This document shows positions 6,201 to 43,084 of a DNA stretch of 64,000 bases, piece by piece. The notes below the pieces were generated by a model, which made no database searches, was not told the DNA's origin, and saw only the letters and a program-made list of their open reading frames with translations. The position numbers and the translations under genes are program-made. The DNA is from Candidatus Aminicenantes bacterium (GTDB lineage Bacteria > Acidobacteriota > Aminicenantia > Aminicenantales > UBA8522): assembly GCA_037444845.1 (NCBI GenBank), contig JBBILQ010000001.1, forward strand, positions 25,494 to 89,493, given 5' to 3'. Every line of letters starts with the position of its first letter. The first letter of the stretch is position 1.

Positions 6201-6453
6201 AACAGCCTCCGTCCAGGGCGAGCGATTTTAAAAAATAGCATAATGAAAGAAAAAGAAAAAAGCAAGAAAATGAATAAGCAAAACTTGGAAGAAGTAGAAG
6301 AAATGTCGGCATGCCGACATTTAGTTAAATAGATGAAAATAAAGTAGTTATATTATTTTAGAACGAGATAGAAGGCATGTGTTATGAAACATAATGATTG
6401 AAAAAATAAATCGATTGAAGGGAAAAAAGCGATCAAGTATAATCGGAAAAATC

Positions 6454-7869
6454 ATCATGAACAAACGGGCAGAGAGCGGGTCAAAACCGAGGTTCATCCA
6501 GAAGATGAACCTTATGGATTCGGTATTCCTGGTAATGGGTGCAGTCATTGGTTCTGGGATTTTCATGACCACGGGGTTTATCGCGGAGTTCGTTCCATCC
6601 GCTTTCATGGTGTTGACCGTATGGCTGATAGGCGGAATAGTAACGCTTTGCGGCGCTTTATCCTTCGGTGAGCTGGGTTCGATGTTTCCTAAAGCAGGGG
6701 GGCAATTTGTTTACCTCAAAGAAGCTTACGGGGATTGGGCGGGATTCCTTTTTGGCTGGACATTTTTCTGGGTCATTGAGTGCGGCGGGATTGCCGCCCT
6801 GGCCGTCGGGTTTGCCGAATATGCGGGCTATTTCTTGCCCGGGCTCTCTCCCCAGGCCTCTTTAATAAAAGCAGAGATCGCGGGCATCCCATTGTCTCTT
6901 TCAGCTGGTCAATTCGTGGCGGTAGGGTCAATAGCAGTGCTTTCTGTCATAAATTATCTGGGGATAAAAAGCGGCATACTCGTCCAGAACTTCTTCACAT
7001 TCTTGAGAATCGGCTGTCTGGCGGCCATTGTCTTAGGCGGTTGGTTTATCGGCAGCAAATCAGGCGTCAAGGATCTGGGTCAATTTTTTGCCTCCTCAGG
7101 GCCTCTCGACGTCAAATTCATGGGGTTGGCCTTGTTCGCGGTGCTCTGGACCTATGACGGCTGGTATTCGGTTAGCTGCGCCGCCGAAGAGATAAAAAAC
7201 CCAAAGCGAAACATCCCGCTGAGTCTATTCCTGGGAACGGCAGCGGTTACGATTATTTATCTTCTAGTTAATATGGTCTATATCATGGCCGTGCCGATTG
7301 AACGGATGAAGGGAGTCGCCCGCGTCGGAGAGCTGGTCGCAACCTCCCTATTCGGTCATAAAGGGGCTTTTTTGATCGCTGCGGGCATCACGGTGACAAT
7401 ATTCGGTTGCCTTAGCGCCACGATTCTCTACGGGCCAAGGGTTTATTATGCAATGGCCAAGGAACGTCTATTTTTCAAGCGCATGAGCTTCATTCATCAG
7501 CGTTTTAGGGTCCCCACCACAGCTATTACCTTCCAGGCGGTTTGGTCTTCGCTTCTCTGTCTGTCAGGGACATACCAGACGCTTTATGAATATGTCATCT
7601 TTGCGCTTGTTTTATTTTTTGCGGCAACCGGAGCTGCCGTCATCATTCTCAGAATAACGCAGCCTGAGAAACCCAGGCCTTACAGAACCTGGGGGTATCC
7701 CATCATCCCGGCGGTGTTTATAATCGTCAACCTGGCCATATTCCTGAACAGCATCCTCTCGCAGCCTTTCGAATCTGCTCTCGGGCTGGCCATTATCCTG
7801 GCAGGTGTCCCGGCCTATATTTTCTGGAGAAAAAGAAAGACGGCGGCTGCAGGCCAAGAGAACATGTGA
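6454..7869 (+). CDS. Amino acid permease (APC superfamily)
   Basis: ~12 predicted TM segments, N-terminal GAVIGSGIF signature typical of APC transporters; start taken at MNKRAE.. (ORF track begins 6394). Confidence 0.8.
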   Translation: MMNKRAESGSKPRFIQKMNLMDSVFLVMGAVIGSGIFMTTGFIAEFVPSAFMVLTVWLIGGIVTLCGALSFGELGSMFPKAGGQFVYLKEAYGDWAGFLFGWTFFWVIECGGIAALAVGFAEYAGYFLPGLSPQASLIKAEIAGIPLSLSAGQFVAVGSIAVLSVINYLGIKSGILVQNFFTFLRIGCLAAIVLGGWFIGSKSGVKDLGQFFASSGPLDVKFMGLALFAVLWTYDGWYSVSCAAEEIKNPKRNIPLSLFLGTAAVTIIYLLVNMVYIMAVPIERMKGVARVGELVATSLFGHKGAFLIAAGITVTIFGCLSATILYGPRVYYAMAKERLFFKRMSFIHQRFRVPTTAITFQAVWSSLLCLSGTYQTLYEYVIFALVLFFAATGAAVIILRITQPEKPRPYRTWGYPIIPAVFIIVNLAIFLNSILSQPFESALGLAIILAGVPAYIFWRKRKTAAAGQENM

Positions 7870-13842: not shown

Positions 13843-13920
13843 CGGAACTCCTTCTCTATTAAATCCACTACCGAAACAATACCAGGAAGGTTCCAGGAAT
13901 TCCTTGACTTTGGTCAAAAA

Positions 13921-14541: not shown

Positions 14542-14658
14542 GTGAGCTTTCCCTCCACGTTAGAGCAGGAAAGCCGCGCCAGTTTCACGCCTATCCTAAC
14601 TCATGATGCTGCCTCGTCAGGCTATTTGGCTTCAGGCCGGAATCTTATCTCTGGCATT

Positions 14659-15468
14659 TTATCCCCGCTCCACAGGCAGAATCAGGCAAGTCGGTCCTCC
14701 CCTCCCCTTCACGAACTCGGAAAGGTCGAGGAAATGAACCCTGTAATTAGCCTCCTTAAGAGCTCTGGCAGCGACCGTGTTCTTTTTCTCGGCGATGACC
14801 TCATTATTGCCCAGGGAGATGACATTGCCGCTTACGGAATGACCGCGGGATATCGTGATTGTCTCGAAGCCTGATAAGAAACCGCGGGGGAAAAGGCCGC
14901 CGCAGCACAGGACCGCCTTTGTCCCGACCAGACTCATGGCCCCTCCGATGTGGAGGTAAGGCGGCGGCAGGATGATGACGCGGACCTCATAGCCCATGGC
15001 CTCGAGAAGGCGGGAAAGCTGTTTTACGCCCGCGGAGTTTGTCCGCACGGACTGGCCGACGAAAGCGACATCGCCAGCCAGGATGACGTCACCGCCCTCG
15101 ACCGTCCCTGGAGGACGGATTTCGCCGGCGCAGGGAACGCCAACCGCATCAAGAGCAGCAGCCATCCAGTCTTCCTCGCCTCGGCGTGTCCGCAAGCCCA
15201 TCCTGAGTTTGATGTAGCCCTCTGGCGTAACCAGGCTCGAGTCCCGGGTAAACACAGAATTGGGATGGCCAGAAAGCTCCTTAAGACGGACGACGCGTGC
15301 TCCTGATTTCCTCAAGAGCGCGCAGAGGCGGCGGTGCTGTTCAATGGCTTTTGCCCTGACAGCCACTTGCTCGATGTTATGGGCTTGGGGGTCCCTCACG
15401 CTGAAGTACTCTTTTCGCGGCGGCGAAACGACGACGCGCCTCAGCCTGTCGCCTTCATTCCTTACCAT
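14659..15468 (-). CDS. Dimethylarginine dimethylaminohydrolase-like enzyme (amidinotransferase/arginine-deiminase fold)
   Basis: 269 aa; DDAH-like motifs incl. FTRDS and C-terminal active-site cysteine context GGPTCLILPVER. Confidence 0.7.
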   Translation of the reverse strand: MVRNEGDRLRRVVVSPPRKEYFSVRDPQAHNIEQVAVRAKAIEQHRRLCALLRKSGARVVRLKELSGHPNSVFTRDSSLVTPEGYIKLRMGLRTRRGEEDWMAAALDAVGVPCAGEIRPPGTVEGGDVILAGDVAFVGQSVRTNSAGVKQLSRLLEAMGYEVRVIILPPPYLHIGGAMSLVGTKAVLCCGGLFPRGFLSGFETITISRGHSVSGNVISLGNNEVIAEKKNTVAARALKEANYRVHFLDLSEFVKGRGGPTCLILPVERG

Positions 15469-15532
15469 GGCCGTATCCTTTGTTCCTGTTCTTTAGCCGT
15501 AGTTTTTAGCGTATCAATTCCCAACATACCAC

Positions 15533-17557: not shown

Positions 17558-17849
17558 TCGTCCTCTTCAATGCCTTCTTTTCGTTCCTGCTCCCAGAAAA
17601 AGGGAAGTTATTATTCCTCAGTTGCGGCCTTTAGTCAAAAATGGAGCTGCTTGACAAAGTCCTCTTGAAGCGCTGATCTATCCTTCAATGTGCGGCTGCC
17701 TGCAAAAAACGTCTCCGGTTTCCTAACGCTTTGTATCTTATTCATACCCAATTAGATGTGTCAACTGCAAAATCCTTCTTGCCGCATTATCTTATTTGAG
17801 GTATTTTTTGAAGCCCTATACTTTCTTTAAAATAATGCAAGGAGGAATC

Positions 17850-20800
17850 ATGAGAAGAATAGCCACGATATTCTTAATTTGCATCCATTGCTTTTTCTTA
17901 GGTTTTCAAACCCTGGAAACCGTGGAAAGCGTTGGGGTCTGGGAGGATAAATTGATCATCCCGACCTACGAAGTATGTGCCGACAATCCGTATCCATGGT
18001 TCAATGAATGGAAAAGCGACGCGCCAATCTACCCTTATCCTTTCAAGGACTGTATGTCGTGGAAGAAGACCGAAAAAGAATACATCACGCTTGTCCTTGA
18101 AAACGAGTATCTTCGCGTTATTGTTTTGCCCGAAATTGGAGGTCACCTGTATCGGTTCGTTGACAAGGTCAACAACAGAGACATCATTTATACCAACCAT
18201 GTCATTAAGCCTGGTTACTTCGGTGTGCGCGGCGGGTGGTGCTCGGGAGGTTTTGAGTTCAACTTTCCAAAGGCACATTCTCCGACCACTATCTCACCTA
18301 TTGACTATGCCATACGGTCTAATCCTGACGGAAGTGCCTCTATTATCGTTGGGGACCTGGAAAGAATGTATCGAATGAAGTGGCAGGTTGTTCTGACTTT
18401 GCATCCAGGCAAGTGCTTTCTGGAGCAGGAGGTAACGCTGCACAATCGGACGCTTCTGCCGCACCGATATCACTGGTGGACAATTGTAGCAATGCACCCC
18501 AATGATAACACACAGGTCATATTTCCATCGGCGCGAATTATAAACCATCCCCAGGAATACATTATCACCTGGCCAATATGGATGGGGAGAGACAACAGCT
18601 TGTACAAGACTTTGCACCATCGTTTTGGCTCTGACTGGTCAATGCTCGAACCTTGGGATGGCTTCTTTTGTTATTATGACCATGGCATTGATGCTGGGCT
18701 GGTGCACGTCGCTAACAAACACGTGCTGGGAGGAACAAAGTACTTCTCGTATGGTAACACCACATCGGGAAGGTTCCATTCTGCCTACGTCATGTCGGAC
18801 GAGGACGGTCCCTACGACGAGATCGATAGTGGTCTCTTCTTGACTCAGGCCGACCACGAGATCTTCGAGCCTCTCGGTGTAAGGCACTGGCGTGAGTATT
18901 GGTATCCGGTGAATGGGACCCAAGGGCTCATAAAGGCCACAAGGGATGCCGCTTTGAATGGATGGAGAGATGGCGATCAGATCAATGTTGCATTGAACGT
19001 GAATTCCCTGCTGGAGGAGGGACGGATAATAGTTAAGACTGGTGAAGTGACGGCTATTGACGAGAGCTTTTCCCTCTCACCAGGAAAGGCCTATCAAAAG
19101 AAGGTCATGGCACCCTACGGTAGACTGTCGGTGGCTGTGACTGACTCCCAAGGCGAAGATATCTTGCGCTTCGCCGAGACTCCAATCGATGAAAGCAGCC
19201 TACCACCGGAAGGTCCGGTTTTAAAAAGGGAAAAAGATATCGAGGACATGAGCGTTGAAGAGGCTTGCCTGGCAGGGATATCTGCGCTGCGAGAGGAGAA
19301 ACCGTGGGAAGCACAGAAGTTTTTCAAGGGAGCCTTGAGGAAAGATCCTGGCCACTCTGCCGCACATTTGCAACTTGGTATTATCTACCTGAACCAGGGT
19401 TTGTGGAATGAGGCGGCGTCAGAGCTGAGGGCCGCGCTCAAGAGAAATCCCATGCAGGGCATGCCGCACTACTATCTGGGAGTGCTCCACAAGCTGATAG
19501 GCAACATGGGGCAGGCTGTTAACGACTTCTGGAAGGCAGCAAGATACACTGATGGGTACGGGAAAGCACACCATTGTCTCGGTCAAATCGCTCTTGCTGA
19601 AGCTGACTTTTTCAAAGCCATAGAGCATTTCCAAAACGCGCTTAAGGTAAACAGCCGCTCGGCAGAGACACAGGGATTTTTAGGGGCTGCGTACAGGAAA
19701 TCCGGCTGCTTCGAAGATGCTCAGGAAACAATCAAACTCATACTTCAAGACCAGCCCATTGATCACCTCGCGGCTTTCGAAGCATATCTACTTTCCAAGA
19801 AAGCCCACGAGAATGAAGAAGAGACGCTTGCGGCATTCCGTAAGCTGATGCGTGGCTGCGTCCACTCGTACATGGAGCTGTCGTGGACCTATGCAAATTG
19901 TGGGATGTATCAGGAGGCAATTGAGGTTTTGGATGACATTGTAAAAAGAGGTAAAGATGAACTCTATCCGATGTGTTACTATCAACTGGGCTATCTCTAC
20001 AGGAGAATCGGTGATGAGCAAAGAGCCGCAGTGCTGTATAGGATGGCGCGCTCAGCAAAAGATTGGCGATACGTATTTCCCAATCGTCTTGAGGAAATGT
20101 TGGTTCTGGAGGATGTGCTCAGCCATCAGCCAGATGACTACGGTGCGCGGTATGCCTTAGGGAACCTGCTGTCCTCTCGCTATCGATATCAGCACGCTAT
20201 AAAAGAGTGGGAAGCAGCCGCAGCATCAGCTGAAGCTGCAACAAAAGCCGATCGGCAGCGTCATGGCGCATGCCTGACCGCGCTTTATCGAAACCTTGCA
20301 TTTTTGCATTGGAAGAAAGAGAAAAAGATTGATAAGGCCATTTCCTATTATCGTGAAGCCATTGAATATGCACGCGGGCATTTCCAGTGCTGGGTAGAGC
20401 TTGCCCAGTTGTATAAGGAGGTAGAAGGTACCGACGAGGCTATCGCTGTGCTTGAATCTGGTCTGCGTGGGGTGACAAGACCGGCGGAGTTGGCTCTGGC
20501 ATTAGCTCCCCTGTATTTCGAGAGGAAGCAATACGACCGGATCATCGATATGCTGCCGAAGTACAAAAATGATGATTGGAAATCGCTGGAGGCACAGCGA
20601 TGGGTAAGGCGGGCGCGTCTTGAGAAAGGCAAGGCCTCCTTCAAGGCAGGTAAATTCGAGCAAGCGCTGAAAGAATTCTCAAAGGCAACAAAGATTTGCC
20701 GGGAGAACATACCCGTGCAAAACCTGCTGGTGCGCGAATTTGCCGAGATCCACTGGTGGGCGGGAAACACATATGCCAAGATGGGCAAACCCGATGAGGC

Positions 20801-21140
20801 AAGGAAGTGTTGGGCAGAAGTTGAGCTGGAGTGGCATGAACAGATATCACCTCTCAACTTCTACAAGGCAAAATGCCTCCAGGCTATTGGAAAGCATGCC
20901 GAGGCCGAGAAATTGCTCCGGGAGATGCTATTCTTTGGTGGAATGTATGCAAATCGCTACCCCCACAAGGGAGAAGATGCTAAGACGAGAATTGGCATGT
21001 ATAAATACCTGCAGGCACTCGCATACGAAGGGTTAGGCATGCAAGATGAAGCCACCAGACTCTATAACGAAGTATTGCAACTGATACCTGAACACGAGGA
21101 GGCCAAGGAGAAATTGCAAGTGGAAGCGCTAAAGAAGTAG
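17850..21140 (+). CDS. Large secreted protein: N-terminal mutarotase-like/DUF5107-type domain plus multiple C-terminal TPR repeats
   Basis: RBS GGAGG at 17841; signal peptide MRRIATIFLICIHCFFLGF; C-terminal half rich in TPR-like 34-aa repeats (e.g. AAHLQLGIIYLNQGLWNEAASELRAALKRNP). Confidence 0.65.
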   Translation: MRRIATIFLICIHCFFLGFQTLETVESVGVWEDKLIIPTYEVCADNPYPWFNEWKSDAPIYPYPFKDCMSWKKTEKEYITLVLENEYLRVIVLPEIGGHLYRFVDKVNNRDIIYTNHVIKPGYFGVRGGWCSGGFEFNFPKAHSPTTISPIDYAIRSNPDGSASIIVGDLERMYRMKWQVVLTLHPGKCFLEQEVTLHNRTLLPHRYHWWTIVAMHPNDNTQVIFPSARIINHPQEYIITWPIWMGRDNSLYKTLHHRFGSDWSMLEPWDGFFCYYDHGIDAGLVHVANKHVLGGTKYFSYGNTTSGRFHSAYVMSDEDGPYDEIDSGLFLTQADHEIFEPLGVRHWREYWYPVNGTQGLIKATRDAALNGWRDGDQINVALNVNSLLEEGRIIVKTGEVTAIDESFSLSPGKAYQKKVMAPYGRLSVAVTDSQGEDILRFAETPIDESSLPPEGPVLKREKDIEDMSVEEACLAGISALREEKPWEAQKFFKGALRKDPGHSAAHLQLGIIYLNQGLWNEAASELRAALKRNPMQGMPHYYLGVLHKLIGNMGQAVNDFWKAARYTDGYGKAHHCLGQIALAEADFFKAIEHFQNALKVNSRSAETQGFLGAAYRKSGCFEDAQETIKLILQDQPIDHLAAFEAYLLSKKAHENEEETLAAFRKLMRGCVHSYMELSWTYANCGMYQEAIEVLDDIVKRGKDELYPMCYYQLGYLYRRIGDEQRAAVLYRMARSAKDWRYVFPNRLEEMLVLEDVLSHQPDDYGARYALGNLLSSRYRYQHAIKEWEAAAASAEAATKADRQRHGACLTALYRNLAFLHWKKEKKIDKAISYYREAIEYARGHFQCWVELAQLYKEVEGTDEAIAVLESGLRGVTRPAELALALAPLYFERKQYDRIIDMLPKYKNDDWKSLEAQRWVRRARLEKGKASFKAGKFEQALKEFSKATKICRENIPVQNLLVREFAEIHWWAGNTYAKMGKPDEARKCWAEVELEWHEQISPLNFYKAKCLQAIGKHAEAEKLLREMLFFGGMYANRYPHKGEDAKTRIGMYKYLQALAYEGLGMQDEATRLYNEVLQLIPEHEEAKEKLQVEALKK

Positions 21141-21223
21141 GTCAAAGGGTCGGCAAAACGCGGGTCGGAGCGCACGTGGTCGAATCCGGCGCTCAAAACG
21201 CGCTGATGCTCTGAGAAAGGAGT

Positions 21224-21802
21224 TTATCTTCGGTATTTCCCCATGAGCTGGCCCTGGGCCAGGATGTGCCCTTCCATGGCTTTGAGGAGCTCAGCTTTGG
21301 TTGCGCCGGCCGGAAGGTTGAGGACAGCGTCCAGAGCATACAGCTTGAAAAAATACCGGTGCGTTCCGCCCGGCGGACAGGGGCCGCCATAACCAATACG
21401 GCGAAAGTCGTTCCGGCCTTGTTTAGCGCCGTTCTTGAGTTCCCTGTCTGGCGGGATTGCTTCGGGAAGCCCTTTCTCAGTTGCCGGCAGGTTGAAAAGC
21501 ACCCAGTGGACCCAGGTGCCCATGGGTGCGTCCGGGTCATCGGAGATAAGAGCAATCGTCTCGGCACCTTCCGGCACTCCTGTCCAGGAAAGTGGCGGAG
21601 AGACATCCTCGCCGTCACACGTGTATTTGCGGGGAATCATCCCGCCTTCCTCAAATGCCGTGCTCGTGATTTTAATGTCCATGTTGCCTCCTCCCATTAA
21701 AAGAGAACCCCTGATTATCCCTTCCTCGGGCGAAGCCATGGCTTGAGCCATGATGCCAGAGAGGAAGAGTACCAAAAAAAGAATCGGTCGGCTTAACTTC
21801 AT
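21224..21802 (-). CDS. YbhB/YbcL-family (PEBP / Raf-kinase-inhibitor-like) periplasmic protein
   Basis: Signal peptide; SPPLSW, DPDAP..GTWVHWVLFN and YGGPCPPGGTHRYFFKLYALD motifs typical of bacterial PEBP. Confidence 0.85.
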   Translation of the reverse strand: MKLSRPILFLVLFLSGIMAQAMASPEEGIIRGSLLMGGGNMDIKITSTAFEEGGMIPRKYTCDGEDVSPPLSWTGVPEGAETIALISDDPDAPMGTWVHWVLFNLPATEKGLPEAIPPDRELKNGAKQGRNDFRRIGYGGPCPPGGTHRYFFKLYALDAVLNLPAGATKAELLKAMEGHILAQGQLMGKYRR

Positions 21803-21924
21803 CTCGGACCTCTTGCTTGGAGTCTGTTAACCTAAGGTCTCTTTTCTATTTTCTCACTCTCTGTAAAGGGCGTCAATGACATCTTGTAAAAAATGAGGCA
21901 AAATACTAACCTATTAGAGAATTT

Positions 21925-23700
21925 TTGGCGGTGAGCATGGCCTGCACGATCAGAGTTCCCTCGCACCGAAAGACGATCCTCGCCCAGAAAGGTGAGGTGC
22001 TGGCAGAGGTTCTCCGGCGGGCGGGCATCCCCCTTGTTCTTTTCTGCAACCAGCGCGGCCTGTGCGGAAAATGCTCTGTCGAGGTCATCAAAGGCAAGCT
22101 GCCCGCGCCCGCAGAAAAAGAAAAATTCTTGTGGAAACAAAAGATCCTCTCAAGGAATCAGCGGCTCTCCTGCCTGTTTGAAATCAAAAGCGACCTCGAA
22201 ATCGGCGTTCCTTTTCGCTCGACAGTCCAGGAAGTGCCGATCCTCCCCGCCCTTAAGCGAACCTCCGTCTCGATCTACCCGGCTGTGAAAAAGTATGTCC
22301 TCGGGATACCCCGGCCTCGAATCTCCTCCCCAGAGTCTCTTTTTGAGCTTCTTCTCGACGGCCTTGGTGAGAAACACTTGAAGGTTTCGCCATCGCTGCT
22401 CGGAGAGCTCGCTTCGATGCTGGAAAAAGCGAAATACAAAGTGGTTGTTATCATTCACCGCGATAAAGAAATCATTGACCTCCGGCCAGCAACAGAAGAC
22501 TCCCCCATCTTCGGTCTGGCCATTGACGCAGGGACGACGACTCTGGTCATGGAACTTGTCGAGCTCGACAGCGGAAAAACAGTGGACAGCCAGGCCGCTT
22601 TTAACGCACAGGCGAGCCGCGGGGCGGATGTCATCTCCAGGATAACCTATGCCCTGTCCGGACAAGAGAAGGCAGGAGAGCTCAGGACTCTGGTCCTGAA
22701 CACTCTCAACCGCATGATCAGCCAGGTTCTCGAGAGAAATAATATTTTGCCCTCCTCCGTCTATGAAATCGTCGTCTCCGGGAACACGGTCATGAATCAT
22801 CTCCTCCTGGGCGTTCCAGTCCATTCTCTCGCTGTGGCGCCCTATCAGGCTGTTTTTTCCCGTCTCCCCTATTTCTCAGCTCAGGAGACCGGTTTCGCTG
22901 TCCACCCCGAGGCCAGAGTTTATGTCTCTCCTAATGTTAAAAGCTTTGTCGGAGGCGATATAGCCTCAGGCCTCTTGGCTTCGCGATTGGACAGACTGAA
23001 GGGAAATTTTCTGTTCATCGACCTGGGCACGAACGGAGAGATCGCGCTCAAGACAGGCAAGAGTCTTATCGCCACCTCAACAGCCGCCGGGCCGGCGTTT
23101 GAAGGGATGAACATCAGTTGCGGCATGCCGGCTCTGGCCGGAGCCGTTTATAAGGTAGAGGACGTTTCTGGTAAACTCAAACTCCGCGCTTTGGCCGGCA
23201 AGCCGGCCCGGGGAGTCTGCGGGACTGGCCTCATTGACCTCATCGCCATCTTCCTCAAAAGAGGAGAGATTTCCCCTCGGGGAGCCATCCTGAACAGAGA
23301 GAAGCGGCTTCATATCGCCAAGGGGATTTCTCTCACTCAGGATGATATCCGGCAGGTTCAGCTTGCTTGCGCCGCCATCAAGACCGGCATCCGGCTAATG
23401 CTCAAACGGAATGGCCTCCGGGAAGCTGAGCTTGACGGCGTTTACATCGCCGGCGCTTTCGGCAATTACCTCAACATCGAGAACAGCATGAGGATCGGAC
23501 TCCTGCCAAGCATCGAGGAGCGCAGGGTTATATTCGTCGGGAATTCTTCTCTGGCTGGAGCCAGGCAATTGCTTGTTTCCTTGAAGGAACGGGAAAGAGT
23601 GGAATCGCTGATCAAGAAAGTCAGCTATCGAACGTTAGCCTCCGACCCGCTTTTTCAGGATCATTTTGTCAAAGCCCTTGAGTTGAAGAGCTGGCCGTAA
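21925..23700 (+). CDS. RACo-type corrinoid reductive activase (2Fe-2S ferredoxin domain + ASKHA/DUF4445 ATPase domain)
   Basis: N-terminal plant-type [2Fe-2S] motif CNQRGLCGKCSV (C-x4-C-x2-C...C), long ASKHA-like C-terminal domain; immediately upstream of corrinoid protein and MttB-family genes. Confidence 0.75.
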   Translation: MAVSMACTIRVPSHRKTILAQKGEVLAEVLRRAGIPLVLFCNQRGLCGKCSVEVIKGKLPAPAEKEKFLWKQKILSRNQRLSCLFEIKSDLEIGVPFRSTVQEVPILPALKRTSVSIYPAVKKYVLGIPRPRISSPESLFELLLDGLGEKHLKVSPSLLGELASMLEKAKYKVVVIIHRDKEIIDLRPATEDSPIFGLAIDAGTTTLVMELVELDSGKTVDSQAAFNAQASRGADVISRITYALSGQEKAGELRTLVLNTLNRMISQVLERNNILPSSVYEIVVSGNTVMNHLLLGVPVHSLAVAPYQAVFSRLPYFSAQETGFAVHPEARVYVSPNVKSFVGGDIASGLLASRLDRLKGNFLFIDLGTNGEIALKTGKSLIATSTAAGPAFEGMNISCGMPALAGAVYKVEDVSGKLKLRALAGKPARGVCGTGLIDLIAIFLKRGEISPRGAILNREKRLHIAKGISLTQDDIRQVQLACAAIKTGIRLMLKRNGLREAELDGVYIAGAFGNYLNIENSMRIGLLPSIEERRVIFVGNSSLAGARQLLVSLKERERVESLIKKVSYRTLASDPLFQDHFVKALELKSWP

Positions 23701-23741
23701 AGCCGGTTGGGCCGGCCCCCAGTTTAAAAGGAGGACTCAGG

Positions 23742-24404
23742 ATGAAGGAAGAAATGTTGGAAAAAATGGCCAGGGCCATTGTAGACGGGCAAAGAGCAGA
23801 AGCTGAATCCCTGGCCAGAGAAGCCGTTATGAACCGTCTGGACCTTCTTGAGGTCATCGAGAGAGGTTTTGTGCCCGGCATTCAGAAAGTCGGCGAACTA
23901 TGGGAAAAAGGAGACTATTTTCTGCCCGAGCTCATCAGCTCGGCCGAAAGCATGAAAGCCGCCATGGCCGTCATCCAGCCTGAGCTGCGCCGCGCCAAAA
24001 TCGACGCGCCATCCAAAGGAAAAGCAGTCATTGGAACAGTTGAAGGTGACATCCATGACATCGGCAAGAACCTCGTCGCTTCCATGCTCCAGGCCCACGG
24101 GTTTGAGGTCCATGACCTTGGCGCAGATATCAAGTTGGGAAAATTCATCGATAAGGCGCAGGAGACCAGGGCCGACTTTATCTGCCTGTCCGCGCTCCTG
24201 ACGACGACCATGCTCGGCCAGAAAAGGCTCATCGAGATGCTCAAAGCCTCAGGCCTGAGGGAACAGTTCATGGTGCTTGTCGGCGGAGCGCCTGTCACCC
24301 AGAGCTGGGCGGATGATATCGAAGCTGACGGCTACGCCGAGAACGCACTGGCTGCTGTCAGTCTTGCCGTCCGGCTGATGGAAAGGAAGCGGGCAAAAAA
24401 ATAA
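23742..24404 (+). CDS. Cobalamin-binding corrinoid protein (methyltransferase cognate, MtxC-like)
   Basis: 220 aa; B12-binding DxHxxG motif (GDIHDIGKN), N-terminal helical cap; typical size of MtmC/MtbC/MttC/MtgC. Confidence 0.85.
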   Translation: MKEEMLEKMARAIVDGQRAEAESLAREAVMNRLDLLEVIERGFVPGIQKVGELWEKGDYFLPELISSAESMKAAMAVIQPELRRAKIDAPSKGKAVIGTVEGDIHDIGKNLVASMLQAHGFEVHDLGADIKLGKFIDKAQETRADFICLSALLTTTMLGQKRLIEMLKASGLREQFMVLVGGAPVTQSWADDIEADGYAENALAAVSLAVRLMERKRAKK

Positions 24405-24419
24405 AGCAAGGGGAAAGCC

Positions 24420-25877
24420 ATGATCAAGCCAAAAAGACCGAAGCTCGAGCTTTTGACCAAGTCTTTTATCCAAAAAATCGTCGATGAGGCCTTTCTTCTT
24501 CTGGGAAGGCACGGGGTCTTTGTGGAAAACGAGGCGGCTCTGACTCTCCTTCGAGAAGGAGGAGCGGAAATAAACGAAACCACAAGACGCGTAAGATTAA
24601 GCGGTGGCCTGATTGAGGAGTGCCTTTCTTCCGCTCCCTCCACCATCACACTTTATGATAGGGCAGGCGAGAAGGAGTTTGTCGTCGGAGGGGATCAGGT
24701 TCATTTTGACCCCGGGTCAGCGGCCGTGACGATCCTCGACCATGCCACCGGGGCAGAAAGGAAGGCAGTGACTGATGACCTTGTCAAATTCTCCCGGTTG
24801 ACCGACTTGCTCACACATTTCCACTTCCAGAGCACGGGGCTTGTGAGCTCGGACGTGCCGGAAGAAATTGCCGATGTCTATCGCCTTTACATTTGCCTTC
24901 AGTATTCGTCCAAGCCCGTGGTCACCGGGACGTTTCGGGTGGAAGGATTCAAACCCATGTTCGACACGCTCGTGGCCATCAGGGGGAGCGAGGCAAACTT
25001 GGCTGAGAAGCCTTTGGCCATTTTCGACGCCTGCCCCTCCCCTCCCCTCAAATGGAGCAACCTCACAGCCCAGAGCCTCGTTGATTGCTGCCGCGCGGGA
25101 ATTCCCTCTGAGCTGATTTCTATGGGCATGACTGGTGCGACTTCGCCAGTGACGATAGCCGGTACGCTGGTCCAGCATGTCGCTGAAAACCTTTCCGGCC
25201 TGGTTATCGCTCAACTGGCCAAACCCGGCGCTCGTGTTATCTTCGGCGGCTCTCCCTCGAGCTTTGACATGCGGCGCGGCACGACACCCATGGGCGCTAT
25301 AGAGACGATGATGATCGATGTGGCCTATGCCCAGATCGGAAAATTCCTGAACTTGCCGACTCATGCGTACATGGGACTGAGCGACTCCAAGGTCAACGAT
25401 TTTCAGGCCGGGTTGGAAACCGGGATAGGCGCTGTGCTGGCTGCCCTTGCCGGCATTAACGTCGTCTCAGGACCCGGGATGCTCAATTTCGAGAGCTCGC
25501 AGAGCCTGGAAAAGCTGGTCATCGATAACGAAACCTGCGGCCTCGCTTATCGGCTTGCCGAGGGCATCTCCCAGCGCGACGAGCCGCTGGCTCTTGAGCT
25601 TTTTGATTCTCTGGGCAAGGAGATGCAGTTCCTGACTCTCCCCCACACGCGAAAATGGTACCGCCTCGAACATACGTTTCCGGCAGTTACCGACCGCGAG
25701 ACTTACGATGCCTGGGTGGCCATGGGCAAGAAAACAATGGCCGACCGTGCCGCTGAACGCGTCGAACAGCTTTTAAGAGAGAATCCGCCAGCCCTCCCCG
25801 ATCCAGCGATCGTCCAGGAGCTTCAGAAGATCATGCTCGTGGAAGCGCGAAAAGCCGGCCTCGAAAGACTCCCCTGA
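24420..25877 (+). CDS. MttB-superfamily (trimethylamine methyltransferase-like) substrate:corrinoid methyltransferase, non-pyrrolysine type
   Basis: 485 aa TIM-barrel-size protein with MttB-family similarity along length; ORF is uninterrupted (no in-frame amber), as in quaternary-amine (glycine betaine/proline betaine/carnitine) MttB homologs. Confidence 0.8.
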   Translation: MIKPKRPKLELLTKSFIQKIVDEAFLLLGRHGVFVENEAALTLLREGGAEINETTRRVRLSGGLIEECLSSAPSTITLYDRAGEKEFVVGGDQVHFDPGSAAVTILDHATGAERKAVTDDLVKFSRLTDLLTHFHFQSTGLVSSDVPEEIADVYRLYICLQYSSKPVVTGTFRVEGFKPMFDTLVAIRGSEANLAEKPLAIFDACPSPPLKWSNLTAQSLVDCCRAGIPSELISMGMTGATSPVTIAGTLVQHVAENLSGLVIAQLAKPGARVIFGGSPSSFDMRRGTTPMGAIETMMIDVAYAQIGKFLNLPTHAYMGLSDSKVNDFQAGLETGIGAVLAALAGINVVSGPGMLNFESSQSLEKLVIDNETCGLAYRLAEGISQRDEPLALELFDSLGKEMQFLTLPHTRKWYRLEHTFPAVTDRETYDAWVAMGKKTMADRAAERVEQLLRENPPALPDPAIVQELQKIMLVEARKAGLERLP

Positions 25878-26009: not shown

Positions 26010-28661
26010 ATGAGAATCATGAAGAACAAAAACTTAGTGATTCTATGGCTCCTTGTTGGAATCGGGTTTGTGTTGAGGATATGGGGAACAGCCGGCGTCT
26101 ACATAAGAGGCGATGACTATATGCAGATCCACCAGGCAGGCATTGCGTACAATGAGTATGTTGACGCTGACGTTGGCTATCCTGTGTTTTATCAATACGT
26201 CGGCGGATTTATCCTTAAGGCGTTGAATAAGTTTCTTTACGTGATGGGGGCGATTGAAAAGGGGCACAAAAAAGAATGGAGCTACGATGAAGTCGCCATC
26301 ATCATGAGAATTCTTTCCGGTTTTTATGGAGCCATTTCTATTCTGTTGGTTTATCTTATTGCGAAGAAACTTTACGATGAGAAAGCCGCTCTTCTTTCCT
26401 CATTCTTTCTCACGTTCACCTTCTTTCACATTTTGACCGGGCATACGGCCCTTCTGGACAATCAGATGGGCTTTTTTATTCTTCTTGGCTTCCTGTTCAT
26501 GGTTGGCATAGCGAAAGAAGGAAAAACCCATCACTACCTTCTTGCCGGGTTGATGACGGGGTTTGCTATCTCTTCCAAATACAATGCCGTCTTTCTGGTT
26601 TTCACATTGCTTATCTCTCACATCATCCGCGTGTTTAAGAAAAAGAGGTTCTGGAAAATACTTTTTGATAAAAACATCATCCTTTCAGGACTCCTCCTCA
26701 TTTTTGGTTTCTTCCTGGGCAATCCTCCGGCCTGGATGGCGTTTAAAAAGTGGTCCAGTGGCATAGTTCAACTCGGTCGCATCATCCGCCAGCCAGACGC
26801 CTGGATGGTGACGTTTACTTTTTCCAATGTGTGGGATTTTTTGAAATACAACAAATACACGGGGGCAATTCTCAAGATTCACTACTCAATAAAAATCTCG
26901 TTGCTTCTATTGTTATTCTTAGGGCTTTTCATATTGATAAAAAGGCATAAAAAGGAAGACATTCTGCTTCTTTCATTCCCTTTCTTTTATGTCATCTTGG
27001 GACTTGGAATTTATGAGATCATAAGAGAAAGAGATCATTTCGCCCTCATCCCTTTCTATCTCATGATCGCCTCTGTCGCGTTTTTATGGCTCATCGAGGT
27101 GACAAAGAAACGTGTGCCTTCTCGAAAGATTCATTTTCTCATGTTTCTAATCCTGCTTATTCTTGCTTCTTATCCTTCTCTAAAAAACGCGGTGGACATC
27201 GCGTCCATTTTTCATGAAAGAGATACACTTGAATACGGGGAAGAATGGATTTATGAGAATATTCCGCCGAAGAGCACGAACGTATTCGAGATGTACACGC
27301 CCTTCGTTTATACTCCCATGGAGAAATATCAGTCCATTTTTCCGAACAGATTCCGACTGATGTTCTACTTCATCATGGGAAGATGGCTTAGAGAAAATCC
27401 TTTTGATTCCTTGAGAAAAGATGGCAGGTTTGTTCACGTATCGAACTTGAACCCCCGGAGGTTTATCGGGATAGAAAAATTTTATGCGAAAGAGCTGAGC
27501 TTTTATAAAAGGATTTTTAGAGAGTTTAAAGTGGTTAAAAAATTTTCACTGAGAGAGGTCGAATCAAAGAGTCCAACCCTATACATCTTTACGACGAAAA
27601 GACTTCCCCTTCGAGAAATCCCCTTGCTCTTTCCCGAACAACTCTCCTTGAATCAAAGGGAAACGGATATCTTTTTTGATGATCCGGGAATTTACGGCAA
27701 GAGCAATCTTATTTTTGTCCTGGAAGGAAGAGGTGCTGCTGAAAGGAGAATCCTTTCGCGGAAAGGGATCAAAGAGTTCGTTGTTTTCCTTTACGGAAAC
27801 GGCGGGGAAGAAGTCAAGATATTGGAGAAAAGGACGACCCTTGGACAATCGGGGTTTGCGTTTGTCCGTCTCCGTCTGCCCAAAAAAACTTATCCCTTCT
27901 CAGAACCCACGTATCGCATTCATATCAAGTCTCTTGCTGACCATCCAGTCCTGGTGAAGGTCCATCACGATCCGCTAAAAATTGGTTACGAGTTCTTCAA
28001 GAACGGCATGTTTGAAGAAGCGTCCAGGTTTTTTTCAGCAGCGAGAGAAGAAAATCCCGACAACCCAGACGCCTTGTTGTACCTTCGCGAAACACGGACA
28101 CGAATGGGAAAGGAAATCGAAAAGCTTTCGGCCAGGGATGCAGATAGAATCCATTCCATTTTCAACCTCCAGAATATGGAGAATTGGATGAAAAGGATGG
28201 AAAAGATGACGGGAATCGACGTGGAATTTCTCATCGATTCGCTTTCTCTTTACCTCGAGGTTGAGGATCTTTCCGGGGATGATCCCGTTGTCCACGATCC
28301 AAAGTTTTTGAACCGCAAGGCGCTGCTGGCCGCCAAGCCTTCCCGCATCGAACTTCCCTTCTTTCTTCCGCAATCCTATGTGGCGACGATAAAGGCTTCT
28401 AACCCGGAAGGCCCGTTAACCTCCGACCTCAAGATTTTTTCCGCGGGACGCTTCTGGGCCCCAACGAAGGTTGATCGTGGTGGAGATTTATTCTGGTGTA
28501 TCGAGATTCCTTTCCAAAAAGACATGGACACCGCTTCTCTTGACATCGATGTCAAGGATTCTTTTCTCCTCCTCGACAGCATCTGGATAAGGCCGGATAT
28601 CAGAAATTTCTTCGTGGAGAAAAAAGGAGACCTTTCCTTTCTCTCCCCTCACGAGAGGTAA
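26010..28661 (+). CDS. GT-C-fold (ArnT/PMT-like) membrane glycosyltransferase-like protein with large C-terminal soluble domain
   Basis: ~12 TM N-terminal half with acidic DD motif in first extracytoplasmic loop (IRGDDYMQIH), aromatic-rich loops; C-terminal ~450 aa soluble with TPR-like segment; visibly AT-richer than flanking genes. Confidence 0.5.
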   Translation: MRIMKNKNLVILWLLVGIGFVLRIWGTAGVYIRGDDYMQIHQAGIAYNEYVDADVGYPVFYQYVGGFILKALNKFLYVMGAIEKGHKKEWSYDEVAIIMRILSGFYGAISILLVYLIAKKLYDEKAALLSSFFLTFTFFHILTGHTALLDNQMGFFILLGFLFMVGIAKEGKTHHYLLAGLMTGFAISSKYNAVFLVFTLLISHIIRVFKKKRFWKILFDKNIILSGLLLIFGFFLGNPPAWMAFKKWSSGIVQLGRIIRQPDAWMVTFTFSNVWDFLKYNKYTGAILKIHYSIKISLLLLLFLGLFILIKRHKKEDILLLSFPFFYVILGLGIYEIIRERDHFALIPFYLMIASVAFLWLIEVTKKRVPSRKIHFLMFLILLILASYPSLKNAVDIASIFHERDTLEYGEEWIYENIPPKSTNVFEMYTPFVYTPMEKYQSIFPNRFRLMFYFIMGRWLRENPFDSLRKDGRFVHVSNLNPRRFIGIEKFYAKELSFYKRIFREFKVVKKFSLREVESKSPTLYIFTTKRLPLREIPLLFPEQLSLNQRETDIFFDDPGIYGKSNLIFVLEGRGAAERRILSRKGIKEFVVFLYGNGGEEVKILEKRTTLGQSGFAFVRLRLPKKTYPFSEPTYRIHIKSLADHPVLVKVHHDPLKIGYEFFKNGMFEEASRFFSAAREENPDNPDALLYLRETRTRMGKEIEKLSARDADRIHSIFNLQNMENWMKRMEKMTGIDVEFLIDSLSLYLEVEDLSGDDPVVHDPKFLNRKALLAAKPSRIELPFFLPQSYVATIKASNPEGPLTSDLKIFSAGRFWAPTKVDRGGDLFWCIEIPFQKDMDTASLDIDVKDSFLLLDSIWIRPDIRNFFVEKKGDLSFLSPHER

Positions 28662-28668
28662 AAACGGC

Positions 28669-30948
28669 ATGGGGATTTTTTCGCGCGAAACCCGGAAAAG
28701 GAGGGATCTTTTCATTGTGATTCTTTTGGCCGGGTTTTTCTTGAGGTTCTGGGGATTGTCTTCCGACCTCATGAGAACAGATGATGCCGCCGTTGCTCAA
28801 ACGATCCTGGCGGTCTACCACGGTGTTTTTAACGAAGATTCGATCCTCCAGAGCTCGTTTTTTTTCACCTTTTTTCCTGCCCTTGTGATGAAAGGAATCT
28901 CCGTTTTTCTGTCGACGATTTTTTTTCATAAAGAAGCCTCTGTTTATCCCTTCACGTTGAGCCAGACTATTTTCCTCTCAAGAGTCGTCATCGCATTCAT
29001 GGGATTTCTGAGCATTCCCGTTCTCTATCTTTCCATGAAGAGGCTGGCCCGGGAACAGACAGCTCTTTTGGGAACATTCCTCTTTTCCATCTCCTTTGTT
29101 CACATCTTCCACAGCCACAGACTTGCCCCCGACATTCCAGCCGCTTTCTTCGTGCTTTTGTGCCTGTATTGTTCCCTGGCCATCTATGAATCTGGAAGAT
29201 GGCACAATTATTTTCTTGCGGGAGTCTTTGCCGGGCTCGCAGCATTGTCGAAGCCCGCTGCGGGTTTAGCCGTGCTTGTCATCGTTTGTGCCCATTTTCT
29301 GAGATGGCAAAGAGGAAAACCGTTGTTCCCAACCGTTTTTAGCCTCAAGCTGTTCCTTGGCGTTTTTTCGTTTCTTCTGGGACTGGTGATGGGCCATTGT
29401 GTGTTCATTAAAAAATTTCCCTCCTTGACGCGATCGATGTCACTTCTTTTTAGGCTTGAGCCTCAGCCAGAAAATATTTCATTGACGATGAAGCCAGCAG
29501 GAATCGTTGGACAGATGCTTACAACCAAGCATGGCCAGGCATTTGCTCATGTCTTCTCCGTAGAGGGCGCGATTTTTTTCTTTTTGATCGTCTTCGGCGT
29601 TGTCATGATTTTTTTTCTCAAGAGAAAAAAAGAAACCCTGCTTTTTTTTGCCTTTCCCATCCTCTATCTGGCCGCTATCTCGCTCATCGGCATGCGTTCG
29701 CTCAGAGACCTTGTATTCCTCTCTCCCTTTTATTCTTCTGTTGCGGCGCTGGGATTATTTTTTCTGGTCGATCGAAGATGGAAGAAACGTGGAAGAACAA
29801 CCGCTCGTGCGGTCGTCGCCCTACTGCTCATCGCGATTTTTGGCCGCGCTGTCTGCAACGGATACTTGATCTGGGATGATGATACATCCGAGATTTCTCA
29901 TAGATGGATGCTCAGGAATATGAGCGAAGAAACACGAAACAAAACCTCCCTCTCCGCGGATCTTCAAGAGCATGGGTGCGTCAAGGAGTTCTTTCTCAAA
30001 GAAATTGAATCCAAAAATGCTCCGATAAAGATTTACAGAGGAACAAATATGAAGACGCAGAAAATGCGCCTTCCGCTTCCTGACGTTCCCTATCAGAAAA
30101 AGATTCCGAGAGAGTTTGAGATTCTGGACGGGAGTCCATACGGGAAGGAGACCAAAAGTTTCTGGATTGAAGAAGGGGATAGAATTGAAAGAATATTCAT
30201 ATCCAGAAAGCCTTTAAGAGGAATTGCTATATTTTTTCTCAGCAATGAATCGGATGGCTCTGTCGCAATAAGGAATTCCGTCCAGAAGAAGACAATCAAG
30301 CTGGAAAAAGGAAAAAACACGCGCATCGTCATGAAGCCTTTTTTGTCCTTTCCCTACCATAAATATCGCTACAGCATAAGGATAGAGGGAAAGAAAGGAC
30401 TAAGGGGCTCGTTCGTAAGAGTTGTCCCTGATCAAATCGAAGCGGGACGTCCATTCCCTGACGATGGGTTGGACAAGGAAGCCAGACAGGAAACAAGCAT
30501 CGACCCCGATTTTTTTGCCGAATCCAAAAGCATAAAGCTTCAGGCAGAAGACATGGAACAGAAAAGTTCCCAGCTCGTCGAATCTGATTCTTTTTCCGGC
30601 GGAAAGGGAATGATGTTCATGAAAGACGGAGAGGAGGGGCAGCTTTCTTCCTCCCGGTTAATCCTGTATCCAGGAAAATACAGCCTTCAGCTGAACGTGA
30701 TATTTCTGGGCGCACAAAAATCAATTCATTCCTCCATTGCCTTTATTCAAGGCAATCGGAAAACGGAATACCGGATATCTCCTGAAAACTCGTCTTTTTC
30801 TGAGAATATGGCCAAGATTGACCTTGCCTTCGATATATCCGAGTTGAAACCTTTCTCCATACATATCGCAATCAAAGAAAGGGATACTTTTATCCTTGAT
30901 TATTTAAAAATCTCTCCTTCTTTGGATGGGCTCTTTTTGGAAAAATAA
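28669..30948 (+). CDS. GT-C-fold (ArnT/PMT-like) membrane glycosyltransferase-like protein, paralog of upstream gene
   Basis: Same architecture (LRFWGL..MRTDDAAVAQT first-loop DD motif, multi-TM N-terminus, soluble C-terminus); starts 8 nt after previous stop. Confidence 0.5.
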   Translation: MGIFSRETRKRRDLFIVILLAGFFLRFWGLSSDLMRTDDAAVAQTILAVYHGVFNEDSILQSSFFFTFFPALVMKGISVFLSTIFFHKEASVYPFTLSQTIFLSRVVIAFMGFLSIPVLYLSMKRLAREQTALLGTFLFSISFVHIFHSHRLAPDIPAAFFVLLCLYCSLAIYESGRWHNYFLAGVFAGLAALSKPAAGLAVLVIVCAHFLRWQRGKPLFPTVFSLKLFLGVFSFLLGLVMGHCVFIKKFPSLTRSMSLLFRLEPQPENISLTMKPAGIVGQMLTTKHGQAFAHVFSVEGAIFFFLIVFGVVMIFFLKRKKETLLFFAFPILYLAAISLIGMRSLRDLVFLSPFYSSVAALGLFFLVDRRWKKRGRTTARAVVALLLIAIFGRAVCNGYLIWDDDTSEISHRWMLRNMSEETRNKTSLSADLQEHGCVKEFFLKEIESKNAPIKIYRGTNMKTQKMRLPLPDVPYQKKIPREFEILDGSPYGKETKSFWIEEGDRIERIFISRKPLRGIAIFFLSNESDGSVAIRNSVQKKTIKLEKGKNTRIVMKPFLSFPYHKYRYSIRIEGKKGLRGSFVRVVPDQIEAGRPFPDDGLDKEARQETSIDPDFFAESKSIKLQAEDMEQKSSQLVESDSFSGGKGMMFMKDGEEGQLSSSRLILYPGKYSLQLNVIFLGAQKSIHSSIAFIQGNRKTEYRISPENSSFSENMAKIDLAFDISELKPFSIHIAIKERDTFILDYLKISPSLDGLFLEK

Positions 30949-42020: not shown

Positions 42021-42055
42021 AGGCATCTAACCTGTCATTTTGCGAATAATCCGGG

Positions 42056-43081: not shown

Positions 43082-43084
43082 TTT

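Follow-up and report, generated by a model that had tools for sequence, protein, structure and literature searches.

A RACo-, corrinoid-, and MttB-encoding cassette of an Aminicenantes bacterium as a possible donor half of a split methionine synthase

In a 64,000-nucleotide stretch of contig JBBILQ010000001.1 from a Candidatus Aminicenantes bacterium (assembly GCA_037444845.1, positions 25,494 to 89,493; here called the window), three adjacent genes encode a RACo-type reductive activase, a corrinoid methyl-carrier protein, and a methyltransferase of the MttB superfamily that lacks pyrrolysine (Pyl). From the gene content of related operons, we propose that the methyl groups handled by this cassette are likely passed to homocysteine and not to tetrahydrofolate (THF), and that the cassette more likely feeds methionine synthesis than betaine breakdown. 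The residues of the predicted active site make glycine betaine or another acidic quaternary amine an unlikely methyl donor. We regard it as an even call that the cassette is the methyl-donor half, together with the activase, of a split, MetH-like methionine synthase whose homocysteine module is encoded elsewhere in the genome. For a cluster type of this kind, seen in Ca. Electryoneota and in "diverse bacteria," Williams et al. (2022, PMC9324843) proposed a novel corrinoid-dependent methionine synthase and left the methyl donor open; we found no later experimental work on it in the literature. The idea of a split methionine synthase has stood as a hypothesis since 2022; the window adds a variant that bears RACo and lacks the homocysteine methyltransferase gene.

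The cassette and the pocket of its MttB homolog

A first-pass annotation, made from the sequence alone, had named the three genes, and their identities and coordinates were borne out by open reading frames (ORFs) and by Pfam, which was run over essentially all substantial ORFs of the window (Table 1). The activase ORF spans 591 amino acids from TTG 21925, with GTG 21931 and ATG 21937 in the same frame. The form in the NCBI annotation has 587 amino acids; therefore, the true start is probably ATG 21937, 12 nucleotides (nt) downstream of the one first proposed. All four Pfam domains of the activase scored above their cutoffs (Fer2, 33 bits; RACo_linker, 44; Raco_middle, 184; RACo_C_ter, 229): an N-terminal [2Fe-2S] ferredoxin domain with Cys37, Cys43, Cys46, and Cys79 is followed by the linker, middle, and ASKHA ATPase domains. 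On NCBIfam, the protein fell below the cutoffs of both AcsV (397 bits against 800) and RamA (158 bits against 500), and it is because of the former shortfall that it is not filed as AcsV.

The corrinoid protein combines a helical cap (B12-binding_2, 77 bits) with a Rossmann domain (B12-binding, 99 bits) and carries the cobalt-ligand motif DIHDIG from D103 (D103-I-H105-D-I-G). It scored 224.8 bits on TIGR02370 (cutoff, 215.3), which models the cognate corrinoid proteins of methyltransferases, and stayed below the cutoffs of the MtgC (223 against 310 bits), MtbC, and MetH models. The MttB homolog matched PF06253 at 299.4 bits (cutoff, 25), with residues 3 to 471 covering positions 25 to 491 of the 500-position profile. 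As the first-pass annotation had it, there is no in-frame amber codon, or any other internal stop, in this ORF; the Pyl position is Leu320, whose codon, CTG (25377 to 25379), is two substitutions from TAG. The three genes lie on one strand with intergenic gaps of 41 and 15 bp. Compared with L012, a relative of 88% identity, the ratio of nonsynonymous to synonymous substitution rates (dN/dS) was 0.24 for the RACo gene and 0.10 for both the corrinoid gene and the MttB homolog. These values point to purifying selection and suggest that the cassette is still functional in the form that lacks a homocysteine methyltransferase gene.

We modeled the MttB homolog with AlphaFold2 from a 116-sequence alignment and obtained a predicted local distance difference test score (pLDDT) of 97.2; an earlier model built from 40 close homologs (pLDDT, 52) was discarded. 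Foldseek gave template modeling (TM) scores of 0.94 against 7xcl and 0.93 against 9yce, with a root mean square deviation of 1.8 Å over about 478 columns. Both the PF06253 profile and a TIM barrel with a C-terminal dimerization extension place the protein in the MttB superfamily, where it is equidistant in sequence from Pyl-MttB (7xcl; 222 bits, 32% identity) and MtgB (2qne/9yce; 219 bits, 31% identity).

In MtgB, mutagenesis and a ligand-bound structure have defined the glycine betaine site, in which Y97 and F356 provide cation-pi contacts to the quaternary nitrogen and R312 and H348 bind the carboxylate; the R312L exchange abolishes activity (PMC13080624, JBC 2026). According to the text of that study, MtcB, MtpB, MtyB, and MthB, which are acidic quaternary-amine enzymes, retain this Arg, as do all characterized non-Pyl members; the substrates of the characterized non-Pyl members of the superfamily are all acidic quaternary amines (PMC12155760). 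In MttB, the conserved Gly110 and Tyr364 activate pyrrolysine (PMC9842639). We mapped these residues with phmmer and MAFFT; the published numbering of six MttB and four MtgB residues was reproduced exactly, which makes the alignment register trustworthy. MtgB residues Y97, R312, and F356 correspond to S100, H315, and E358 in the window protein, and H348 to a one-residue deletion beside S350. Pyl-MttB residues G110, Pyl334, and Y364 correspond to S100, L320, and S350, and the score on TIGR02369 (398.1 bits) lies below the 525-bit cutoff. With the MtgB residues absent, the Pyl-MttB residues absent, and TIGR02369 missed, the homolog falls outside both characterized kinds and is predicted to function neither as a Pyl-MttB nor as an acidic quaternary-amine enzyme like MtgB.

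Its pocket consists of S100, H315, Y317, L320, S350, F357, and E358 (signature SHYLSFE) and has no carboxylate-binding Arg or His, with small polar residues and a conserved Glu present. The exchanges, Y to S, R to H, H deleted, and F to E, all to smaller or acidic side chains, argue against an acidic betaine donor. The earlier expectation of glycine betaine, proline betaine, carnitine, or gamma-butyrobetaine as the substrate thus runs against the loss of the carboxylate-binding Arg and of three other MtgB residues, and the accompanying caution that the substrate cannot be read from sequence was half right, in that the sequence does argue against the known substrates. We speculate that the donor is a non-acidic methylammonium compound or a larger polar molecule.

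An exhaustive search of 1.84 billion representatives of 50%-identity clusters returned 1375 matches to the MttB homolog at E ≤ 1e-30. The 150th best match scored 235 bits, exceeding the MtgB and MttB scores; thus, more than 150 of these clusters lie nearer to the query than any characterized enzyme. We surveyed the pocket in 117 full-length representatives from among the top matches. S100 together with His or Gln at 315 and Tyr or Phe at 317 was common to 48 of them, 28 of which also had Glu358, and Arg occurred at position 315 in only 7. His or Gln stood at 315 in 49 of the 59 subfamily representatives, the Pyl position was Leu, Ile, Val, or Met in most relatives, and S100, H315, Y317, L320, S350, and E358 were invariant across 40 sequences of the Aminicenantes clade. 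On these residues, the homolog is classed in a large, coherent subfamily with a predicted pocket of its own (S-H/Q-Y-L-S-F-E). The hosts of this subfamily include very many Aminicenantes species, Krumholzibacteriota, KSB1, Zixibacteria, and others, and relatives of the window protein are encoded at 555 or more stretches in GTDB species-representative genomes.

Homocysteine methyltransferase genes in related operons

We collected 80 related loci (54 to 88% identity) by exact-protein look-ups and by a scan of GTDB species-representative genomes with a 14-sequence alignment as the query. Neighboring genes were annotated with seeds from the window and the first loci, with a Pfam check on a sample, and context was counted over the 53 loci with at least 4 kb of upstream and 1.5 kb of downstream flank. 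A corrinoid gene (COR) adjoined the MttB homolog (MTTB) in 48 of these 53 loci, and a reactivation partner, either RACo or a small Met_synt_B12-like activation protein (ACT), was present in 47. The PF02574 homocysteine S-methyltransferase gene (HCY) occurred in 24, in at least four gene orders and in several phyla.

Among all fetched loci, COR-HCY-ACT-MTTB was found 12 times, plus rearranged variants, in Krumholzibacteriota, Zixibacteria, Ignavibacteria, Terriglobales, and unnamed lineages. The remaining three orders were found in Aminicenantes: RACo-HCY-COR-MTTB (8 loci plus variants), COR-ACT-MTTB (10 loci, and the arrangement carried by the syntenic locus L010), and the window type, RACo-COR-MTTB (15 loci, including the closest relatives, L012 and L013, and two copies of the window locus itself). 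The window type recurs across several Aminicenantes clades, and RACo orthologs (400 to 1056 bits) stand directly 5' of (HCY)-COR-MTTB in about 30 loci. The PF02574 genes of these operons scored 225 to 250 bits on Pfam, kept the zinc-ligand motifs NC and GGCCGT in at least 95% of 27 sequences, and were nearest on NCBIfam to the homocysteine domains of YitJ, BHMT, and MetH. The activation proteins matched just the C-terminal activation region of MetH, weakly.

No pterin-binding protein appeared in the related loci annotated with Pfam or in the recurrent neighbor clusters that were checked, a few clusters, each in only 4 to 6 loci, having been left unannotated. On the contig of the window, the search covered the 64 kb itself and further stretches of about 10 kb on its left and 7 kb on its right, so that it took in about 34 kb before the cassette and about 45 kb after it (about 80 kb in all). 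The added stretches held only housekeeping and amidohydrolase genes. There was no PF00809 protein in this range, in agreement with the first-pass annotation, which had seen no methylcorrinoid:THF methyltransferase beside the cassette. That annotation had left room for a different acceptor step or for one encoded elsewhere, which proved to be the key point. Related operons carry HCY and none was found with a pterin methyltransferase, which argues that the acceptor is likely homocysteine rather than THF.

In a neighbor-joining tree, the nearest outgroup was Pyl-MttB, the basal clades were uniformly COR-HCY-ACT-MTTB, and the window clade was nested in a mixed Aminicenantes clade, among HCY-containing operons. 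The SHYLSFE signature was identical in HCY-linked and HCY-less operons, by which the MttB enzyme appears isofunctional across the operon architectures.

We sought stand-alone HCY genes with an operon-embedded HCY protein as the query and listed matches of at least 70% identity. One such gene, P0354, closes an acs cluster that reads CODH, ACS, CooC, AcsD, AcsC, a 635-amino-acid AcsV-like RACo, and HCY. It appears to lie in the same genome as L020, whose MttB locus is COR-MTTB alone, and this case provides a precedent for a homocysteine module unlinked from its MttB locus. On a 4.07-Mb chromosome, an acs-RACo-HCY cluster is followed after 5 kb by COR-MTTB, and one Aminicenantes locus type reads CooC-AcsD-AcsC-RACo-HCY-COR-MTTB; clusters of this type have their CODH and ACS genes farther upstream.

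Many Aminicenantes carry a PF02574 gene at the end of the acs (CODH/ACS/CoFeSP) cluster; in several genomes, the order is CooS/Prismane, CdhC/ACS, CooC, AcsD, AcsC, a 635-amino-acid RACo, and HCY (Table 1). No PF00809 or AcsE-like gene was visible in the 9- to 10-kb flanks of acs-RACo-HCY loci, where HCY sits roughly where AcsE, a methyl-THF:CoFeSP methyltransferase, might be expected. By analogy, this arrangement suggests methionine synthesis straight from methyl-CoFeSP, which would be the MesB-like idea with a different catalytic family.

Two further observations concern the MttB loci. Six of them hold a second, distant MttB paralog (about 170 to 200 bits against the query) beside or near the main operon, with quite different pocket signatures (GSGALGS or SFFCHNG-like). 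The L003 paralog has a corrinoid protein of its own and is accompanied by an SNF-family transporter, a Met_synt_B12-like protein, and a DUF885 gene. A single methyl-transfer system may draw on several donor modules. Separately, the relatives of the window overwhelmingly carry the Aminicenantes label, but many species-representative metagenome-assembled genome (MAG) records with an MttB locus inside the Aminicenantes clade are titled "uncultured Eubacteriales bacterium" or "Clostridiales bacterium" (L012-L091). These titles, probably placeholder or erroneous labels in third-party annotation and MAG records, would mislead surveys that go by name.

Proposed mechanism and competing explanations

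In the mechanism that we propose, RACo would use ATP and a low-potential electron, delivered via its [2Fe-2S] cluster, to reduce the corrinoid from inactive Co(II) to Co(I), as judged by homology to RACo/CoFeSP, MttBC/RamA, and MtgBC. The TIM barrel of the MttB homolog would bind the methyl donor and methylate Co(I) to CH3-Co(III) on the corrinoid protein, again by homology. A stand-alone, zinc-dependent PF02574 enzyme encoded elsewhere in the genome would transfer the methyl group to homocysteine to give methionine, a step suggested by the gene context in relatives. An MttB-type barrel would then stand in place of the folate-binding barrel of MetH and, in this lineage, RACo in place of its S-adenosylmethionine (SAM)-dependent activation domain.

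A broader proposal, which we advance tentatively and think somewhat more apt to fail than to hold, is that the whole subfamily is the donor module of a widespread methionine synthase that depends on B12 and has an MttB barrel where MetH has its folate barrel, the latter having been displaced. The donor would lie outside the known range of the superfamily (a non-acidic methylammonium compound and a methylated pterin are candidates), the system would be integrated with acs in Aminicenantes, and the window would hold a RACo variant with HCY unlinked. Non-Pyl MttB homologs in metagenomes are routinely annotated as trimethylamine or glycine betaine methyltransferases, and such annotations serve as grounds for inferring that methylamines or betaines are cycled, that the hosts compete with methanogens, and even that methyl groups are supplied for mercury methylation. 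If the proposal is true, a large share of the mttB/mtgB counts in sediment and subsurface metagenomes would reflect methionine biosynthesis and not methylotrophy. The MttB superfamily would gain a seventh substrate class, different in kind from the first six, and MetH-like enzymes would show module swapping on two sides, PF06253 for PF00809 and RACo for the SAM domain.

Parts of this scheme are found in known systems. The MttB/MttC/RamA system of Methanosarcina barkeri (7xcl, 7xcn) has the same fold and likewise groups an MT1 methyltransferase with a His-on corrinoid protein and a reductive, ATP-dependent activase; Pyl-MttB is also the nearest outgroup in the tree, and the window protein reaches 398 bits on TIGR02369. 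However, the cassette has Leu320 (CTG) in place of pyrrolysine and Ser100 and Ser350 in place of G110 and Y364, its activase is a RACo with a [2Fe-2S] N terminus and not RamA, and its acceptor is not coenzyme M. Like MtgB of the MtgB/MtgC/MtgA system (Desulfitobacterium hafniense, 2qne, 9yce) and its relatives MtpB, MtcB, MtyB, and MthB of Eubacterium limosum, the window protein is a non-Pyl PF06253 enzyme expected to methylate a cognate corrinoid protein. It differs from MtgB in the replacement of Y97, R312, H348, and F356 and in the lack of a linked MtgA/MtqA-type pterin methyltransferase, and from the E. limosum enzymes in having His315 where they have the acid-binding Arg equivalent to MtgB R312.

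The cluster of Williams et al. (PMC9324843) joins a non-Pyl MttB/MtgB homolog to a homocysteine S-methyltransferase, a corrinoid protein, and an activation protein. By description, its MttB homolog is of the kind found in the window, in that it stands apart from both MtgB and MttB and nearer to MttB. The COR-HCY-ACT-MTTB loci that we fetched, which have this exact set of genes, carry MttB homologs with the pocket signature of the window protein. In contrast, the window has no homocysteine methyltransferase and no Met_synt_B12-like, SAM-binding activation protein; its reactivation partner is RACo. MetH itself shares the modular logic of a donor-binding TIM barrel, a B12 domain, a zinc homocysteine barrel, and a reactivation module, whereas the donor barrel of the cassette is PF06253 and not the pterin-binding PF00809, and reactivation by RACo is ATP dependent and not SAM dependent. 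Phaeobacter and Ruegeria have a split MetH/MtgBCDE system (PMC12478193), in which a single corrinoid protein serves both the MttB-family MtgB of Ruegeria and the methionine-synthase modules, with the partner methyltransferases unlinked; however, that MtgB is a bona fide glycine betaine enzyme, and the pterin-binding MtgD is essential. The MesB/MesC "core" methionine synthases of Wood-Ljungdahl anaerobes share with our scheme the concept of making methionine without folate from a methylated corrinoid protein and have been proposed to draw methyl groups from CoFeSP (Price et al. 2021, PMC7857596). The PF02574 gene that ends the acs cluster in Aminicenantes recalls this arrangement, but MesB and MesC have MetE-like catalytic domains, not PF02574, and no donor module of the MttB family. 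We also considered CdmB, a chloromethane dehalogenase, as a precedent within the MttB family and set it aside; its paper cites the MttB superfamily merely for comparison.

Several points weigh against assigning the cassette to methionine synthesis. RACo- and RamA-type activases are typical of catabolic systems. PF02574 is missing from the operon in 29 of the 53 loci, and no PF02574 match was found in the six-frame ORFs of the window (E ≤ 10) or in the 17 kb of additional contig. The corrinoid protein is of the methylamine-methyltransferase type (TIGR02370) and not specifically MetH-like, and the primary partner of the PF02574 enzyme of acs clusters could be CoFeSP rather than the corrinoid protein of the cassette. 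The references available for phylogenetic placement were 7xcl, 2qne/9yce, and 4yyc only, and the conserved Arg of MtcB, MtpB, MtyB, and MthB is taken from the text of PMC13080624.

One alternative, which corresponds to the model of the first-pass annotation, is methylotrophy of the catabolic or assimilatory kind seen in MtgBCA and MtqBCA. There, an environmental methylated amine would methylate the corrinoid protein, and an unlinked pterin methyltransferase would move the methyl group to THF and into one-carbon oxidation or the Wood-Ljungdahl pathway. The combination of an MT1 enzyme, a corrinoid protein, and an ATP-dependent activase is that of catabolic systems, the corrinoid protein passes TIGR02370, acs genes adjoin the operon in related Aminicenantes, and an unlinked, shared methylcorrinoid:THF methyltransferase has a precedent in R. 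pomeroyi MtgBCD (PMC12478193). Because the window lacks an acceptor gene, its activase is ATP dependent, and some relatives lie beside acs genes, we treat this route as a serious contender, albeit an unlikely one. It sits poorly with the absence of PF00809 from the window, its flanks, the Pfam-annotated related loci, and the checked neighbor clusters, and with the presence of PF02574 in 24 of the 53 loci. Moreover, no BCCT- or OpuA-type betaine/choline transporter is linked to the cassette, and the spread of the subfamily over very many Aminicenantes species looks more like housekeeping than niche catabolism.

The methyl group might instead pass from the corrinoid protein to CoFeSP/ACS, a folate-free methyl entry into the Wood-Ljungdahl pathway. 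The CooC-AcsD-AcsC-RACo-HCY-COR-MTTB order of one Aminicenantes locus type, with no AcsE-like gene visible, would fit such a hand-over, although AcsE may sit outside the 9- to 10-kb flanks examined. There are no acs genes in the window or in the roughly 80 kb of contig, the non-Aminicenantes members are COR-HCY-ACT-MTTB operons without acs genes, and nothing here is a candidate enzyme for methyl transfer from corrinoid to corrinoid; we think the hand-over improbable.

We give slightly less credence still to a glycine betaine methyltransferase (MtgB) or an enzyme for another acidic quaternary amine (like MtpB, MtcB, MtyB, or MthB), the common metagenome label for such proteins. The window protein is indeed a non-Pyl PF06253 member with 31% identity and a TM score of 0.93 to MtgB, and its corrinoid partner reaches 223 bits on the MtgC model. 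That score is under the 310-bit cutoff, however, all four validated MtgB substrate residues, including R312, are absent, and more than 150 of the 50%-identity clusters are nearer to the query than MtgB is.

Finally, the absence from the window of the HCY and ACT genes that related operons hold might mark the three genes as a functionless remnant that has lost its homocysteine methyltransferase and activation domain, but intact, full-length ORFs, dN/dS of 0.10 to 0.24 against L012, conservation of all pocket residues, and the recurrence of RACo-COR-MTTB in 15 fetched loci (two of them the window's own) across several Aminicenantes clades make such decay hardly credible.

Locus history and neighboring genes

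Table 1. Features of the window and of related loci discussed in the text
Feature	Sequence	Position	Strand	Remarks
APC-family (LAT-like) permease	Window	6394..7869	+	Pfam AA_permease_2, 187 bits
Block between APC permease and RACo	Window	7999-21802		About 14 kb
SSF transporter	Window	11071-12825	-	Pfam
Sigma-70-like promoter match, tentative	Window	21876..21904	+	ATGACA, 17 nt, CAAAAT; consensus scan, 9/12 matches
RACo-type reductive activase	Window	21937..23700 (open from TTG 21925)	+	"Type B," 587 aa; Fer2, RACo_linker, Raco_middle, RACo_C_ter
Corrinoid methyl-carrier protein	Window	23742..24404	+	220 aa; B12-binding_2 and B12-binding; His-on DxHxxG motif
Non-pyrrolysine MttB-superfamily methyltransferase (MT1)	Window	24420..25877	+	485 aa; PF06253
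Two tandem PMT_2/PMT-type glycosyltransferase genes	Window	26010-30948		Dolichyl-phosphate-mannose-like
Glycogen/alpha-glucan cluster	Window	40572-50882		Three GH57 enzymes
IMP cyclohydrolase and PurH	Window	51375-53196		PF07826 and PF01808
Four amidohydrolase paralogs	Window; L096	59566-63915 and beyond; 5598-11830		Amidohydro_1/3, 429-609 aa
Distant MttB paralog	L003	717-4558		
Distant MttB paralog	L019	11684-13129		
Distant MttB paralog	L026	3508-4956		
Distant MttB paralog	L034	9503-10981		
Distant MttB paralog	L017	1927-3387		
Distant MttB paralog	L029	1040-2473		
acs cluster closed by HCY	L092	1-9885		
acs cluster closed by HCY	L093	1-9885		
acs cluster closed by HCY	L094	1-9879		
acs cluster closed by HCY	L019, L035, L037, L040, L066			Upstream of the MttB match

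The window shares the backbone of about 15 Aminicenantes loci, in which Rho, ParA/ParB, an APC permease, RACo-(HCY)-COR-MTTB, and a beta-CASP nuclease recur, and a segment of MTTB, a sortilin/BNR protein, and two M14 peptidases is common to about 20. Unlike those loci, it has no HCY gene between RACo and COR. The promoter candidate of Table 1 lies about 30 nt 5' of the RACo start; five such sites occurred in the region against 1.8 expected, and the match is not evidence of function. Rfam and tRNA scans of the window gave no match, and thus no cobalamin riboswitch or tRNA-Pyl there, and a terminator scan gave no excess over shuffled sequence.

The first-pass annotation had offered the APC and SSF transporters upstream of the cassette as candidate importers, and both genes exist. 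The APC permease is 42% identical over its full length to the L060 permease, and its homologs lie directly upstream of RACo in 15 related Aminicenantes loci; in the window, about 14 kb of other genes intervene. It is a possible functional partner of the cassette, although the adjacency could be plain synteny. On NCBIfam, it comes closest to the L-type amino acid transporter (219 bits against a cutoff of 702); it is LAT-like and not a betaine/choline carrier, and it does not settle the donor. We discounted the SSF transporter as an importer linked to the cassette, since its gene lies about 9 kb off on the other strand and has only one weak partial match (34% identity, 35% coverage) among the other loci.

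The block that separates the APC permease from RACo, which are adjacent in about 15 related loci, encodes a DUF5128 beta-propeller protein, two hypothetical genes, the SSF symporter, a 4Fe-4S protein, a Crp-family regulator, a DDAH/ADI-like amidinotransferase, a transglutaminase-like protein, a 1114-amino-acid DUF5107-TPR protein, and a PEBP. Within a 17-kb stretch of L012, the PEBP and transglutaminase genes were matched and the DUF5107 and SSF genes were not. On the other side of the cassette, the tandem PMT genes stand between MttB and the sortilin/BNR gene, which in at least 20 related loci lies just 3' of MttB without them. Their GC content is 0.42 to 0.48 against about 0.55 around them, the first was found elsewhere only in L012, and the second was found only in this species; the pair is probably a recent insertion.

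Three more groups of genes in the window stand apart from the cassette. The glycogen/alpha-glucan cluster has a branching-enzyme-like GH57 protein, an amylase/4-alpha-glucanotransferase of the same family, and a third GH57 enzyme, together with a GlgA-like starch synthase, a GlgC-like nucleotidyltransferase, a GalT-like protein, and a GAF histidine kinase. An archaeal-type, PurO-like IMP cyclohydrolase (243 amino acids) lies directly 5' of a PurH that has the AICAR formyltransferase only (profile positions 62 to 309), a split layout in contrast to the usual bifunctional bacterial PurH. At the right end, the four amidohydrolase paralogs follow one another on the same strand and adjoin an FAD amine oxidase and an MFS transporter; together they may form an island for the catabolism of a nitrogen heterocycle or related compound.

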